Part shown: positions 23,749 to 56,617 of the stretch, in pieces
Numbering within the stretch: position 1 is the first letter of the stretch
How the letters are laid out: the number at the start of each line of letters is the position of its first letter
Source: Escherichia coli
Lineage (GTDB): Bacteria > Pseudomonadota > Gammaproteobacteria > Enterobacterales > Enterobacteriaceae
Assembly: GCF_013315695.1 (NCBI RefSeq)
Contig: NZ_CP054353.1
DNA length: 64,000 nucleotides
Strand: one strand, 5' to 3'
Notes under the pieces: generated by a model
The model's database searches: none
What the model was told of the DNA's origin: nothing
The model's input: the letters and a program-made list of their open reading frames with translations, nothing else
Position numbers and translations under genes: made by a program

Positions 23749-23803
23749 GGTGATGCTGCCAACTTACTGATTTAGTGTATGATGGTGTTTTTGAGGTGCT
23801 CCA

Positions 23804-24079
23804 GTGGCTTCTGTTTCTATCAGCTGTCCCTCCTGTTCAGCTACTGACGGGGTGGTGCGTAACGGCAAAAGCACCGCCGGACATCAGCGCTATCTCTGCT
23901 CTCACTGCCGTAAAACATGGCAACTGCAGTTCACTTACACCGCTTCTCAACCCGGTACGCACCAGAAAATCATTGATATGGCCATGAATGGCGTTGGATG
24001 CCGGGCAACAGCCCGCATTATGGGCGTTGGCCTCAACACGATTTTACGTCACTTAAAAAACTCAGGCCGCAGTCGGTAA
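23804..24079 (+). CDS. insA: IS1 InsA
   Basis: Protein identical to the copy at 17176-17451. Confidence 0.9.
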
Positions 24080-24501
24080 CCTCGCGCATACAGCCGGGCA
24101 GTGACGTCATCGTCTGCGCGGAAATGGACGAACAGTGGGGCTATGTCGGGGCTAAATCGCGCCAGCGCTGGCTGTTTTACGCGTATGACAGGCTCCGGAA
24201 GACGGTTGTTGCGCACGTATTCGGTGAACGCACTATGGCGACGCTGGGGCGTCTTATGAGCCTGCTGTCACCCTTTGACGTGGTGATATGGATGACGGAT
24301 GGCTGGCCGCTGTATGAATCCCGCCTGAAGGGAAAGCTGCACGTAATCAGCAAGCGATATACGCAGCGAATTGAGCGGCATAACCTGAATCTGAGGCAGC
24401 ACCTGGCACGGCTGGGACGGAAGTCGCTGTCGTTCTCAAAATCGGTGGAGCTGCATGACAAAGTCATCGGGCATTATCTGAACATAAAACACTATCAATA
24501 A
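23998..24501 (+). CDS. insB: IS1 InsB reading frame
   Basis: Protein identical to the copy at 17370-17873. Confidence 0.85.
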
Positions 24502-24516
24502 GTTGGAGTCATTACC

Positions 24517-32061: not shown

Positions 32062-32160
32062 AGGTTCTACTTAGCAAAGGTGCTTTAAAAAGTGTAGCGA
32101 TGTTGTGTCAGTATCCGTTCATTATTGTTGTAACAACGACAATTCCTTTCTGTGGAGAAA

Positions 32161-32517
32161 TTAACAAAGCCGCTCCAGATCGTGTGCATATAATTCAGCG
32201 GCTACCGATTGATAGATCTTCCAGTCAATAAAATTGCCATCAGGGTAGACTTGTTGAAACGCGGTTAAGTCGGGGAAAAAACGCATGGTGTTGTTGCCGA
32301 TGCGGTTATTTATTTTCTCTATGATGGCATGAAGATGTTTTTTTCGTTGCTGACGCATAGCCAACAGTTGCTCGACTACACAATCAGGAATGGCGCATTT
32401 GCCATTTTCCCACTGACGCCAGCTTTCACTGTCATCGGTCTGGGCAATCCAGGTCGCGCATTCATCAATAGTCATGGCAAAAATATGGCGAAGTGCCTGG
32501 AGTTCATAAGCGTTCAT
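32161..32517 (-). CDS. ydiL: Uncharacterised protein YdiL
   Basis: 118 aa from MNAYELQALRH... Confidence 0.8.
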   Translation of the reverse strand: MNAYELQALRHIFAMTIDECATWIAQTDDSESWRQWENGKCAIPDCVVEQLLAMRQQRKKHLHAIIEKINNRIGNNTMRFFPDLTAFQQVYPDGNFIDWKIYQSVAAELYAHDLERLC

Positions 32518-32654
32518 CGTGTAATGGCTGCATGAAATAAACAATAAAATATAAATAACATTATCAGCCTGCTGACGGCTTGAAGAGAGTCACAGTATCT
32601 TGTGCAACATTATTGGAAAGAGTGAGGGGCGAGGTAGCGAAGCGGAAAAATGTT

Positions 32655-32760
32655 AAAAAAAAGCCCATCGTGGGAGATGGGCAAAGACTACACACAGCAA
32701 TTCGTTGTTTCACTCAGGGGATTTCCATGCTTATAAATCAATATGTTGATTTATAACCGT
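32655..32760 (-). ncRNA. rprA: RprA small regulatory RNA
   Basis: Minus-strand reading ACGGTTATAAATCAACATATTGATTTATAAGCATGGAAATCCCCTGAGTGAAACAACGAATTGCTGTGTGTAGTCTTTGCCCATCTCCCACGATGGGCTTTTTTTT matches recalled RprA, including the terminator hairpin and U-tract; located between ydiK and ydiL as in K-12. Confidence 0.85.
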
Positions 32761-32945
32761 GAGCTAATAGTAGGCATACGGACTTTTTGCGTCGATCAGA
32801 TTCGTCTCATTAGTTTAAAAACTGTAAAGAATTTGCGACAGGTACTACCAGCTGAATGGCGGTAAGCAGGAAAATATGGGGAAGAGCAAGCAAATATCAA
32901 TTAGCAGGGGTTAACAATCAGGCGGCAGAGCCGCCTGATGAGAAA

Positions 32946-34058
32946 TTACTTATTCGATTTCTCGATTTCGCCAAGTTCTTCGAGAATTTCTTCCGGTTGG
33001 TCCGTCGGCGGTGGGACTTCTTCCACCCACGCGGCAAAAAGACGCCAGGAAACGGCTAACAGAACCGGACCAATAAACAGGCCGATCATCCCGAAAGCAA
33101 TCAAACCACCAATAACACCAGAGAGGATCAGGATCAGCGGTAAATCGGCACCCATGCGAATTAACATTGGGCGGATGACGTTATCCAGCGTGCCAACCAC
33201 ACCGCTCCACACTAACAATACCGTTCCCCAGGTGGTATCACCGGTCCAGTAGAGCCAGATAATCGCCGGAATCAGTACCGGCAACGGTCCAAGCTGGACA
33301 AGGCAGGAGAGGATCATTAACACCGTGAGCAAAGTTGCATAAGGTACGCCGGATACGGCGAGGCCGATACCGCCAAGCACTGCCTGTACTAACGCCGTCA
33401 CCACCACACCCAGCGCCACCGCGCGGATAGCCTGTGCCGCCAGTAGCACAGCAGCATCACCGCGAACGCCTGCCAGACGGGTTGCAAAATGGCGAATGCC
33501 TTGTGCCACCTGTTCACCGCGCCAGTACAGCAGGGCACTGAAGAGAAGCATCAGCGCACAATGCACCATAAAGCGCCCGATATGCGCCGCCTGCCCAACG
33601 AACCAGGTGGTGGTGGTGCCAATATAAGGACGGACTTTCGCCATGATCGCCGTACCCCCCATATCCAGCAAGTTGTGCCAGCCTGCATATAGCTTCGCAC
33701 CAATCACCGGAATGGTATTAAGCCACGCTAGATCGGGTAACGTCATGTCACCGCTGGAAATGGCTTTAATTAGCGGACCGCTGCCATCGACAATACTGTT
33801 AACCAACAAGGCAATAGGGATGATAAACACCATCACTAATAACAGCGTCATCACCAGAACGGCGAGAGAGCGGCGGCCAAACATGATCTTTTGCAAACGT
33901 AACAATACCGGCCAGGTGGCGATAACCACTGTACCGGCCCATGCAAAGCCGAGAATAAAGGGTTGAACAATCCACAGACATGCCACAATCATGATGGCTA
34001 AAAACAGCACCGAAAGCAGAATTTGTGCGACATCCCTGGGCTGACGAACATTTACCAT
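32946..34058 (-). CDS. ydiK: AI-2E/UPF0118-family membrane transporter
   Basis: 370 aa, polytopic. Confidence 0.9.
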   Translation of the reverse strand: MVNVRQPRDVAQILLSVLFLAIMIVACLWIVQPFILGFAWAGTVVIATWPVLLRLQKIMFGRRSLAVLVMTLLLVMVFIIPIALLVNSIVDGSGPLIKAISSGDMTLPDLAWLNTIPVIGAKLYAGWHNLLDMGGTAIMAKVRPYIGTTTTWFVGQAAHIGRFMVHCALMLLFSALLYWRGEQVAQGIRHFATRLAGVRGDAAVLLAAQAIRAVALGVVVTALVQAVLGGIGLAVSGVPYATLLTVLMILSCLVQLGPLPVLIPAIIWLYWTGDTTWGTVLLVWSGVVGTLDNVIRPMLIRMGADLPLILILSGVIGGLIAFGMIGLFIGPVLLAVSWRLFAAWVEEVPPPTDQPEEILEELGEIEKSNK

Positions 34059-38196: not shown

Positions 38197-38419
38197 TCCT
38201 GACTTAATGCCGCAAGTTCGCCATATCGACCTGGATTAACCTCCGTCCAGGTTCGATGGACTTCTTAATACTGCTTATCTACCCGCCTGATATTGTTCAA
38301 AAATAATACTAATCGCAGTTTGTGTTAAAACGGTGGGTTAGCTTTATGAGATTATTCTTATCGCCCCTTCAAGAGCTAAGCCACTGAGAGTGCCGGAGAT
38401 AAGCGCCGGATGGGGTAGA

Positions 38420-38466
38420 AACCCTTAAGCCTGTGATGCACAGACTTAAGGGTTTTCTTATTTCTG
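38420..38466 (+). terminator. Strong intrinsic terminator in the ydiH-sufA interval
   Basis: Perfect 10-bp stem AACCCTTAAG/CTTAAGGGTT with 15-nt loop, followed by TTCTTATTTCTG. Confidence 0.6.
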
Positions 38467-38744: not shown

Positions 38745-39113
38745 ATGGACATGCATTCAGGAACCTTTAATCCACAGGATTTCGCCTGGCAGGGCTTAAC
38801 GCTGACACCCGCAGCCGCTGTCCACATCCGCGAGCTGGTGGCAAAGCAGCCGGGTATGGTCGGCGTGCGCTTAGGCGTGAAGCAAACGGGCTGCGCGGGC
38901 TTTGGCTATGTGCTCGACAGTGTTAGCGAGCCGGACAAAGACGATCTGCTGTTTGAACACGACGGCGCGAAGCTGTTTGTCCCGCTGCAAGCGATGCCGT
39001 TTATTGATGGCACGGAAGTCGATTTCGTTCGTGAAGGACTTAATCAGATATTCAAATTTCACAACCCTAAAGCCCAGAATGAATGTGGCTGTGGCGAAAG
39101 CTTTGGGGTATAG
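38745..39113 (+). CDS. sufA: Fe-S cluster A-type carrier
   Basis: 122 aa; C-terminal CGCGESF motif. Confidence 0.95.
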
Positions 39114-39121
39114 GCGGTACT

Positions 39122-40609
39122 ATGTCTCGTAATACTGAAGCAACTGACGATATCAAAACCTGGACCGGCGGCCCGCTGAATTATAAAGAAGGATTCTTCA
39201 CCCAGTTAGCCACCGATGAGCTGGCAAAGGGAATAAACGAAGAGGTGGTGCGCGCAATTTCGGCGAAGCGTAATGAGCCGGAGTGGATGCTGGAGTTTCG
39301 TCTCAACGCCTATCGCGCATGGCTGGAGATGGAAGAACCGCACTGGTTGAAAGCGCACTACGACAAGCTGAATTATCAGGATTACAGCTACTACTCAGCA
39401 CCATCGTGCGGTAATTGTGACGACAACTGCGCGTCTGAACCCGGCGCGGTGCAGCAAACTGGCGCGAACGCCTTTTTAAGTAAAGAGGTGGAGGCGGCGT
39501 TTGAGCAGTTGGGCGTTCCCGTGCGGGAAGGCAAAGAGGTGGCAGTGGATGCCATTTTCGACTCTGTTTCGGTTGCCACTACTTATCGCGAAAAACTGGC
39601 GGAGCAGGGAATTATTTTTTGTTCCTTTGGCGAGGCGATCCACGATCACCCGGAACTGGTGCGTAAATATCTCGGCACCGTGGTGCCGGGGAATGACAAC
39701 TTCTTTGCCGCACTTAATGCGGCGGTAGCCTCTGACGGTACGTTTATTTATGTGCCTAAAGGCGTGCGTTGCCCGATGGAACTTTCCACCTATTTTCGCA
39801 TTAACGCGGAAAAAACCGGGCAGTTTGAGCGCACCATTCTGGTGGCCGACGAAGACAGCTACGTCAGCTACATTGAAGGATGTTCCGCTCCGGTGCGTGA
39901 CAGCTATCAGTTACACGCGGCGGTGGTGGAAGTCATCATCCATAAAAACGCCGAGGTGAAATATTCCACGGTACAAAACTGGTTCCCTGGTGATAACAAC
40001 ACCGGCGGTATTCTCAACTTCGTCACCAAGCGTGCTTTGTGCGAAGGCGAAAACAGCAAAATGTCATGGACGCAATCAGAAACCGGGTCAGCGATTACGT
40101 GGAAATATCCTAGCTGCATTTTGCGCGGCGATAACTCCATTGGTGAGTTTTACTCAGTGGCACTGACCAGCGGTCATCAGCAAGCGGATACCGGCACCAA
40201 GATGATCCACATCGGTAAAAACACCAAATCGACCATTATCTCGAAAGGGATCTCTGCCGGACATAGTCAGAACAGTTATCGCGGCTTAGTGAAAATCATG
40301 CCGACGGCAACCAATGCGCGCAATTTCACTCAGTGCGACTCAATGCTGATTGGCGCTAATTGTGGGGCGCATACCTTCCCGTATGTCGAATGTCGCAATA
40401 ACAGCGCACAACTGGAGCACGAGGCAACGACATCACGTATTGGTGAAGATCAACTGTTTTACTGCCTGCAACGCGGGATCAGCGAAGAAGACGCCATCTC
40501 GATGATTGTTAACGGTTTCTGCAAAGACGTGTTCTCAGAACTGCCGCTGGAATTTGCCGTTGAAGCACAAAAACTCCTCGCCATCAGTCTTGAACACAGC
40601 GTCGGATAA
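39122..40609 (+). CDS. sufB: Fe-S cluster assembly scaffold SufB
   Basis: 495 aa from [14 protein letters not shown]... Confidence 0.95.
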
Positions 40610-40618
40610 GGAATAAAC

Positions 40619-41365
40619 ATGTTAAGTATTAAAGATTTACACGTCAGCGTGGAAGATAAAGCTATCCTGCGTGGATTAAGCCTCGACGTTCGTCCCGGCG
40701 AAGTTCACGCCATTATGGGGCCAAACGGTTCTGGCAAAAGTACCTTATCGGCAACGCTTGCCGGACGAGAAGATTATGAGGTGACGGGCGGCACGGTTGA
40801 GTTCAAAGGCAAAGATTTGCTTGCGCTGTCGCCGGAAGATCGTGCAGGTGAAGGCATCTTTATGGCCTTCCAGTATCCGGTGGAAATTCCCGGCGTCAGT
40901 AACCAGTTTTTCCTGCAAACGGCACTTAATGCGGTGCGCAGCTATCGCGGCCAGGAAACGCTCGACCGCTTTGATTTTCAGGATTTGATGGAAGAGAAAA
41001 TCGCTCTCCTGAAGATGCCGGAGGATTTATTAACCCGTTCGGTAAACGTTGGTTTTTCCGGCGGCGAGAAAAAGCGCAACGATATTTTGCAAATGGCGGT
41101 GCTGGAACCGGAGTTATGCATTCTTGATGAGTCGGACTCCGGGCTGGATATTGACGCATTAAAAGTGGTTGCCGATGGCGTGAACTCGCTGCGTGACGGC
41201 AAGCGTTCATTCATCATTGTTACGCACTACCAACGCATTCTCGACTACATCAAGCCTGATTACGTCCATGTGCTGTATCAGGGACGAATTGTGAAATCCG
41301 GCGATTTCACGTTGGTCAAACAACTGGAGGAGCAGGGTTATGGCTGGCTTACCGAACAGCAGTAA
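40619..41365 (+). CDS. sufC: Fe-S assembly ATPase SufC
   Basis: 248 aa; Walker A GPNGSGKST. Confidence 0.95.
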   Translation: MLSIKDLHVSVEDKAILRGLSLDVRPGEVHAIMGPNGSGKSTLSATLAGREDYEVTGGTVEFKGKDLLALSPEDRAGEGIFMAFQYPVEIPGVSNQFFLQTALNAVRSYRGQETLDRFDFQDLMEEKIALLKMPEDLLTRSVNVGFSGGEKKRNDILQMAVLEPELCILDESDSGLDIDALKVVADGVNSLRDGKRSFIIVTHYQRILDYIKPDYVHVLYQGRIVKSGDFTLVKQLEEQGYGWLTEQQ

Positions 41366-42611
41366 CGCGCTGCAACAGTGGCATCACTTGTTTGAAGCTG
41401 AAGGGACAAAACGCTCCCCGCAAGCACAGCAGCATTTACAACAATTGCTGCGTACCGGACTGCCGACACGGAAACATGAAAACTGGAAATATACGCCGCT
41501 GGAAGGGCTGACCAATAGCCAGTTTGTCTGCATTGCGGGAGAGATATCCCCACAGCAGCGAGATGCCTTAGCGTTAACGTTAGACGCTGTGCGGCTGGTA
41601 TTTGTCGATGGACGTTACGTGTCAGCGCTGAGCGATGCAACTGAAGGCAGCGGATATGAAGTGAGCATTAACGACGACCGTCAGGGGTTACCCGACGCTA
41701 TTCAGGCGGAAGTGTTTCTGCATTTGACGGAAAGCCTGGCGCATAGCGTGACGCATATCGCCGTGAAGCGCGGTCAACGGCCGGTAAAGCCATTGCTGTT
41801 AATGCATATCACCCAGGGCGTGGCAGGTGAAGAGGTGAATACTGCCCATTACCGACATCATCTGGATCTGGCGGAAGGTGCCGAAGCAACGGTGATCGAA
41901 CATTTTGTCAGCCTTAATGACGCTCGTCACTTCACCGGCGCACGGTTCACTATCAACGTCGCAGCGAACGCCCACTTGCAGCATATCAAGCTGGCGTTTG
42001 AAAACCCGGTCAGTCACCACTTTGCCCATAACGATTTGTTGCTGGCTGACGATGCCACCGCATTTAGCCACAGTTTCCTGCTGGGTGGCGCAGTGTTACG
42101 ACACAACACCAGTACGCAACTCAATGGCGAAAACAGCACGCTGCGGATCAATAGCCTGGCGATGCCGGTGAAAAACGAGGTGTGTGATACCCGTACCTGG
42201 CTGGAACACAATAAAGGTTTTTGTAACAGTCGACAGTTGCATAAAACTATCGTCAGCGACAAAGGCCGCGCGGTATTTAACGGTTTGATCAACGTCGCGC
42301 AGCACGCCATCAAAACGGATGGTCAGATGACCAACAATAATCTGCTGATGGGCAAACTGGCGGAAGTGGATACGAAACCGCAGCTGGAAATCTATGCAGA
42401 TGATGTGAAATGCAGCCACGGCGCGACGGTGGGGCGTATTGATGATGAACAGATGTTCTATCTGCGCTCGCGCGGGATCAATCAGCAGGATGCCCAGCAG
42501 ATGATCATTTACGCCTTTGCTGCTGAACTGACGGAAGCACTGCGTGATGAGGGTCTTAAACAGCAGGTGCTGGCCCGAATCGGTCAACGGCTGCCAGGAG
42601 GTGCAAGATGA
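41340..42611 (+). CDS. sufD: Fe-S assembly protein SufD
   Basis: 423 aa; overlaps sufC by 26 nt. Confidence 0.95.
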
Positions 42612-56126: not shown

Positions 56127-56432
56127 TCAGGCGAGTTTTGCCTGATTGATTTGACTCAGTGGCTCATTGACATCGAAAACTTTGGCGACAACTTCCTCAA
56201 CGCCGAGATTTTTCAGTCGGGCAGTATGTTTTTCCAGATAGGCAAGGGCGCTTTTTTCATCAGTAAAAAGGTAGATCCCACCGGCTTCGTGGTTCTTTTC
56301 ACTTTCTGTCCATACCTTCCACAGAAAACCAGGTTCCTGATTAATCGACTCAGCAAGCGGTTTAAGCTGCTCAGCCATTGCGTCGCCAAATGGGCCATTG
56401 AAAGAAAAATGAAGTTGTAACAAAGTTGCCAT
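56127..56432 (-). CDS. ydhR: Putative monooxygenase-like small protein YdhR
   Basis: 101 aa. Confidence 0.85.
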
Positions 56433-56540
56433 AGCGATTCTCCTTCTGATAACGCATACGAAGACAGTGTAAATCTTTTAACGTATTGGATACAGAGAAG
56501 AAACAGAGGGAAAAAAGGAGAAGACCAGATTAAGAAAATC

Positions 56541-56617
56541 TGGTGCGTCCGAGTGGACTCGAACCACCGACCCCCACCATGTCAAGGTGGTGCTCTAACC
56601 AACTGAGCTACGGACGC
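56541..56617 (-). tRNA. valV: tRNA-Val (anticodon GAC)
   Basis: Reverse complement reads GCGTCCGTAGCTCAGTTGGTTAGAGCACCACCTTGACATGGTGGGGGTCGGTGGTTCGAGTCCACTCGGACGCACCA, a cloverleaf with CCA end. Confidence 0.9.

Follow-up and report, generated by a model that had tools for sequence, protein, structure and literature searches.

The window analyzed here, a 64-kb (64,000-nucleotide) stretch of DNA from an Escherichia coli strain, carries on its minus strand the gene rprA, which codes for the small RNA RprA and is flanked by two intact protein-coding genes, ydiK upstream and ydiL downstream. Read along the minus strand, the features of this locus are as follows:

32946..34058, minus strand: ydiK, the intact upstream neighbor, a 370-aa ORF coding for an AI-2E family transporter (Pfam PF01594, E = 4e-64)
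32761..32905, minus strand: 145 bp upstream of rprA with its promoter and regulatory region, free of mismatches to K-12
32655..32760, minus strand: rprA, gene for the 106-nt RprA sRNA, with the +1 at 32760 and the 3′ end in the U-run at ~32655, assigned by Rfam RF00034 and identity to K-12 b4431
32731..32758, minus strand: 5′ stem-loop of RprA (nt 3-30), seen in both the MFE and the centroid fold and, in the Rfam consensus structure, overlapped by the first helix
32689..32731, minus strand: nt 30-72 of RprA, its central and largely single-stranded part, complementary to the rpoS leader and, per the literature, to csgD, ydaM and narP
32655..32701, minus strand: 3′-terminal 47 nt of RprA, equal to the processed form described as RprAproc, identical in sequence to K-12
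32655..32682, minus strand: Rho-independent terminator of rprA, recovered by a terminator scan, in the fold and as the last helix of the Rfam structure
32161..32517, minus strand: ydiL, the intact downstream neighbor, coding for an Aca2/YdiL-like protein (PF08965, positions 1-118 of 118, E = 1.5e-61)

We established the identity of rprA by covariance-model searches in conjunction with direct alignment to the K-12 genome. An Rfam search of the whole 64-kb window recovered the RprA family (RF00034) at 32653-32760 on the minus strand, spanning model positions 1-108 of 108 and not truncated, with a score of 118.5 bits (E = 1.6e-16; gathering score, 70), well past anything that chance would yield. 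A local, permissive Rfam scan of 32100-33100 recovered the same family (E = 2.5e-18), with the next one falling far below its own threshold; Ysr49, anti-hemB and the XIST A repeat overlapped RprA in this permissive scan, all far below their gathering scores, and we set these matches down to chance or to the terminator. Likewise, rprA of K-12 MG1655 (b4431; NC_000913.3, 1770372-1770477) maps exactly onto 32760→32655, and when the minus strand of the window was aligned to it 106 of 106 bases were identical, with no gaps. The earlier note on this DNA had recognized RprA at 32655-32760 between ydiK and ydiL; the full-length Rfam match and the mismatch-free alignment across the 106 bases bear out the identification, the coordinates of the two neighbors bear out the placement, and the limits given for the gene proved exact, to which we add the strand that it had left out, namely minus (the gene is read from 32760 down to 32655). 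PGAP, too, labels the homologous place in the nearest genomes as “antisense sRNA RprA”.

The program-made list of open reading frames also holds a 58-codon frame on the plus strand (32580-32756) that overlaps the complement of rprA, raising the alternative that the functional product of the locus is a small protein rather than the RNA. However, this frame begins with TTG, matches no Pfam or NCBIfam family at a cutoff as lenient as E <= 1, and is annotated in none of the records examined (the nearest genomes and K-12); moreover, the conservation of the segment is explained in full by the fit of its minus strand, in sequence and structure, to the RprA covariance model, and we regard a coding role as having next to no probability. 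We are instead practically certain that 32760→32655 on the minus strand is the chromosomal rprA of an E. coli strain, encoding the 105-106-nt Hfq-dependent sRNA RprA, and the sequence holds nothing that speaks against this reading. It is an already-known gene, correctly identified, and the novelty of its recovery here is negligible.

Two other families surfaced in the Rfam analysis of the window. The RydB sRNA (RF00118), found at 38363-38423 on the plus strand, scored 81.6 bits (gathering score, 50) and occupies its customary position between ydiH and sufA. The other match, at 56416-56579 and also on the plus strand, scored 112 bits (gathering score, 59) with HPnc0260, an “antisense RNA” family of Helicobacter; it lies antisense to the 3′ half of the tRNA-Val gene valW (56544-56617, minus strand) and extends into the valW-ydhR spacer. 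Its score probably stems from a near-perfect tRNA-antisense segment together with A-rich sequence, and the match is likely an artefact of the family rather than a real sRNA.

The ydiK stop codon and the start of rprA are 185 bp apart, and ydiL starts 137 bp past rprA, with all three on the same strand, and rprA is a free-standing transcription unit in this 185+137-bp spacer. The product of ydiK is full-length, with 370 of 370 residues and a single substitution relative to K-12, and that of ydiL likewise retains 118 of 118 residues, with three substitutions. The YdiL family, PF08965, is the fold family of the anti-CRISPR-associated Aca2 repressors, yet ydiL is here a core-genome gene. The K-12 gene order, ydiK-rprA-ydiL, is also that of the nearest genomes. 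Comparison with RprA of E. coli K-12 (b4431; RF00034) showed the same 106 nt, promoter region, terminator, gene order and relative strand, with zero differences inside the gene; a 461-bp alignment differs only at 32957, 32908 and 32906. The first of these is a synonymous-region SNP inside ydiK. The other two are the sole departures from K-12 in the ydiK-ydiL spacer, lying ~146-148 bp upstream of the rprA +1, whereas the 137 bp between rprA and ydiL are identical to K-12. The SNPs at 32906 and 32908 sit directly past the terminator hairpin of ydiK.

Among 5426 complete E. coli genomes, rprA is present in full (106 nt) at >=99% identity in 5421, normally as a single copy annotated as rprA, and this near-invariance indicates strong purifying selection. 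A 601-bp neighborhood of the gene was found in 5424 of these genomes, with the ydiL-rprA-ydiK annotation alike; it is 100% identical in only two of the 5426 (AF3 and MSB1_4I), from which it follows that at least one of the variants at 32906 and 32908 marks the lineage. A functional consequence of these variants is not expected.

BLAST comparison to K-12 placed rprA inside one collinear block, in which 24517-64000 of the window corresponds to K-12 1778612→1739133 at 97.9% identity with six small gaps. Outside this block, two insertion sequences interrupt the K-12 order:

17121-17888: IS1 copy of 768 bp in fadK, 14.8 kb from rprA
23749-24516: IS1 copy of 768 bp in ydiP (which codes for an AraC-type regulator), 8.1 kb from rprA

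Both copies carry IS1 terminal inverted repeats (GGTGATGCTGCCAACTTA... and GGTAATGACTCCAACTTA...), and each sits between 9-bp target duplications that are still intact (GCGCATGAA and TCAACGGCG). Sharing one orientation, they are identical to each other at 766 of 768 positions and match elements that the annotation of the nearest genome lists as IS1A. The fadK-IS1 junction was found in none of the 5426 complete E. coli genomes and the ydiP-IS1 junction in only 3-4 of them, all IS1-rich; the rarity of these junctions points to recent IS1 activity in the lineage. The earlier note had taken RprA as a sign that the backbone is intact despite IS activity nearby, and the collinearity of 24517-64000, the full-length ydiK and ydiL and the distance to the nearest IS1 copy agree with it: the rprA locus is free of insertions, “nearby” being here a matter of at least 8 kb.

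The IS1 pair brackets 5.9 kb with the genes fadK′-ydiT-ydiS-ydiR-ydiQ-ydiP′, and has probably inactivated this locus of anaerobic fatty-acid oxidation; as direct repeats, the two copies are also a substrate for deletion. The closest genome, L001 (NZ_OZ547117.1, isolate AF3), lacks at ~26362 a segment of ~2.8 kb (38762-41578 of the window, also present in K-12) with sufA, sufB, sufC and the start of sufD, and has an extra IS1 in ydiF that is absent from the window; elsewhere the two are 99.98-100% identical. Close relatives therefore differ by IS1 insertions and by the suf deletion, and the suf operon of the window appears intact. Two further segments depart from K-12. The first, 1-2222, has no K-12 counterpart and is where an integrative element or prophage ends; it codes for a tyrosine integrase, an HTH protein and hypothetical proteins, and abuts the ihfA/btuC region. 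The match to K-12 resumes 18 bp outside ihfA, and the same junction occurs in 118 of the 5426 genomes, including O55:H7 CB9615. The second, 12754-16939, is a 4.2-kb accessory island between ppsA and fadK that is absent from K-12; in the nearest genome it is annotated with an anion permease, a 2-hydroxyacid dehydrogenase, a NanQ/TabA/YiaL-family protein and an SDR oxidoreductase.

Turning to the signals for expression, the 145 bp upstream of the rprA +1 are identical to those of K-12, where dependence of the promoter on RcsB was shown (PMC3465796; PMC7241856). A TACTAT at -12 to -7 is likely the -10 element, and a good -35 element is absent. Consistent with this, a scan for consensus sigma-70 sites found no canonical promoter directly upstream of the +1, and only a weak site at 32900-32871, ~110 nt upstream of it; such a configuration fits a promoter that depends on an activator (RcsB), and we did not count it against transcription. 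The RNA has a predicted fold of -25.8 kcal/mol (z = -2.5 relative to shuffled sequences), comprising a 5′ hairpin, a mostly open center and a terminator hairpin. The latter has a 7-bp G+C-rich stem (32682-32663) with five G-C pairs and a 6-nt loop, followed by T8. The U-tail of this terminator is expected to be the Hfq-binding 3′ end, as is typical of class I/II Hfq sRNAs.

The abundance of IS1 in the lineage raises the alternative that this rprA is a silent relic, conserved in sequence but untranscribed or non-functional after loss of its activator or its targets to IS1 elsewhere in the genome. Each record of the nearest genomes holds at least 40 pieces matching a half-IS1 query, two insertions no more than 15 kb from rprA have already knocked out genes, and rcsB, hfq and the target genes lie beyond the window. 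Nevertheless, rprA is 100% identical to the experimentally characterized K-12 locus in promoter region, RNA and terminator alike, it is unchanged across essentially the whole of E. coli, as befits strong purifying selection, and loss of Rcs or Hfq is hinted at nowhere in the window. We accordingly deem a silent relic extremely unlikely and take up below the reading of the locus as a working rprA.

The mechanism of RprA has been described for K-12. Its promoter is activated by the phosphorylated form of RcsB, the regulator of the Rcs envelope-stress phosphorelay (PMC3465796; PMC7241856), on which it strictly depends (PMC7241856). In the rpoS leader, a hairpin otherwise buries the Shine-Dalgarno sequence and the AUG; RprA pairs with this hairpin at its upstream arm, resulting in anti-antisense activation (PMC3465796; PMC4152358). 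It also represses csgD, via nt 28-45 and 60-97, and ydaM, via nt 45-75, as established with compensatory mutations (PMC3465796), and narP, via nt 30-70; a processed form consisting of the last 47 nt is known from work in K-12 and Salmonella (PMC9262595 for both). Knockout of rprA barely alters RpoS levels (PMC3465796; PMC4152358), and the label “RpoS activator” therefore fits the mechanism of RprA better than its main physiological role.

We compared the RprA of the window with the rpoS leader of K-12, the rpoS of the strain itself lying outside the window. With RNAduplex, nt 30-78 of RprA gave as the best duplex a pairing of nt 30-72 with -135 to -84 of the leader at -32.9 kcal/mol, an energy matched by 40 of 1000 shuffles and hence offering modest support; in the leader's own fold, the segment involved forms the upstream arm and is paired with the Shine-Dalgarno region. 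Confined to the unstructured center of RprA, this calculation replaced one in which the full-length RNA was set against 230 nt of the leader, which we discarded as it gave a sprawling, uninformative duplex of -55.9 kcal/mol, matched by 8 of 300 shuffles. The duplex of the center can be said to agree, to a modest degree, with the published pairing site.

As the gene, promoter and terminator are identical to the K-12 copy on which these studies were performed, we infer that the published mechanism carries over to the strain at hand: its transcription, RcsB control, Hfq dependence, processing and regulatory outcomes, all taken from the literature on the identical sequence, would go together with the sequence identity, fold, terminator, gene neighborhood, conservation and complementarity to the K-12 rpoS leader that we observed directly. 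By this identity, transcription of rprA would start at the RcsB-activated promoter and end at the gene's own intrinsic terminator. The long hairpin of the rpoS leader has an upstream arm that would otherwise sequester the ribosome-binding site; base-pairing of this arm with the center of the RNA would free the site and raise the translation of RpoS. The same and neighboring segments of RprA would pair with the csgD, ydaM and narP mRNAs, leading to their repression.

Like RprA, DsrA and ArcZ are Hfq-dependent sRNAs that activate translation of rpoS, and they do so in the same way, by pairing with the leader hairpin at its upstream arm and freeing the ribosome-binding site; the three together make up the set of such activators (PMC4152358). 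However, the other two are unrelated to RprA in sequence and are encoded at different loci, and the Rfam scan of the 64-kb window, which found RprA and RydB, found neither DsrA nor ArcZ. They also differ in their inputs, with DsrA responding to low temperature, ArcZ to ArcB/ArcA and oxygen, and RprA to Rcs envelope stress.

The genes through which RprA would act or be controlled (rpoS, csgD, ydaM/dgcM, narP, rcsB and hfq) are all situated outside the window. It is conceivable, if very unlikely, that the Rcs-RprA circuit has been rewired in this IS1-expanding lineage while rprA itself was left untouched; for example, an IS1 in rcsC, rcsD, igaA or a target leader elsewhere in the genome could leave RprA constitutively high or functionally orphaned. 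The window contains no pointer to such rewiring.

Taken by itself, the finding amounts to the correct annotation of a textbook sRNA gene and matters very little. Its use is as a landmark: rprA marks the stretch ydiJ-ydiK-rprA-ydiL-ydiM as native, uninterrupted core genome of E. coli and anchors the window to K-12 ~1.739-1.795 Mb in reverse orientation, an anchoring that lets the strain-specific IS1 insertions, the prophage end and the accessory island be read.
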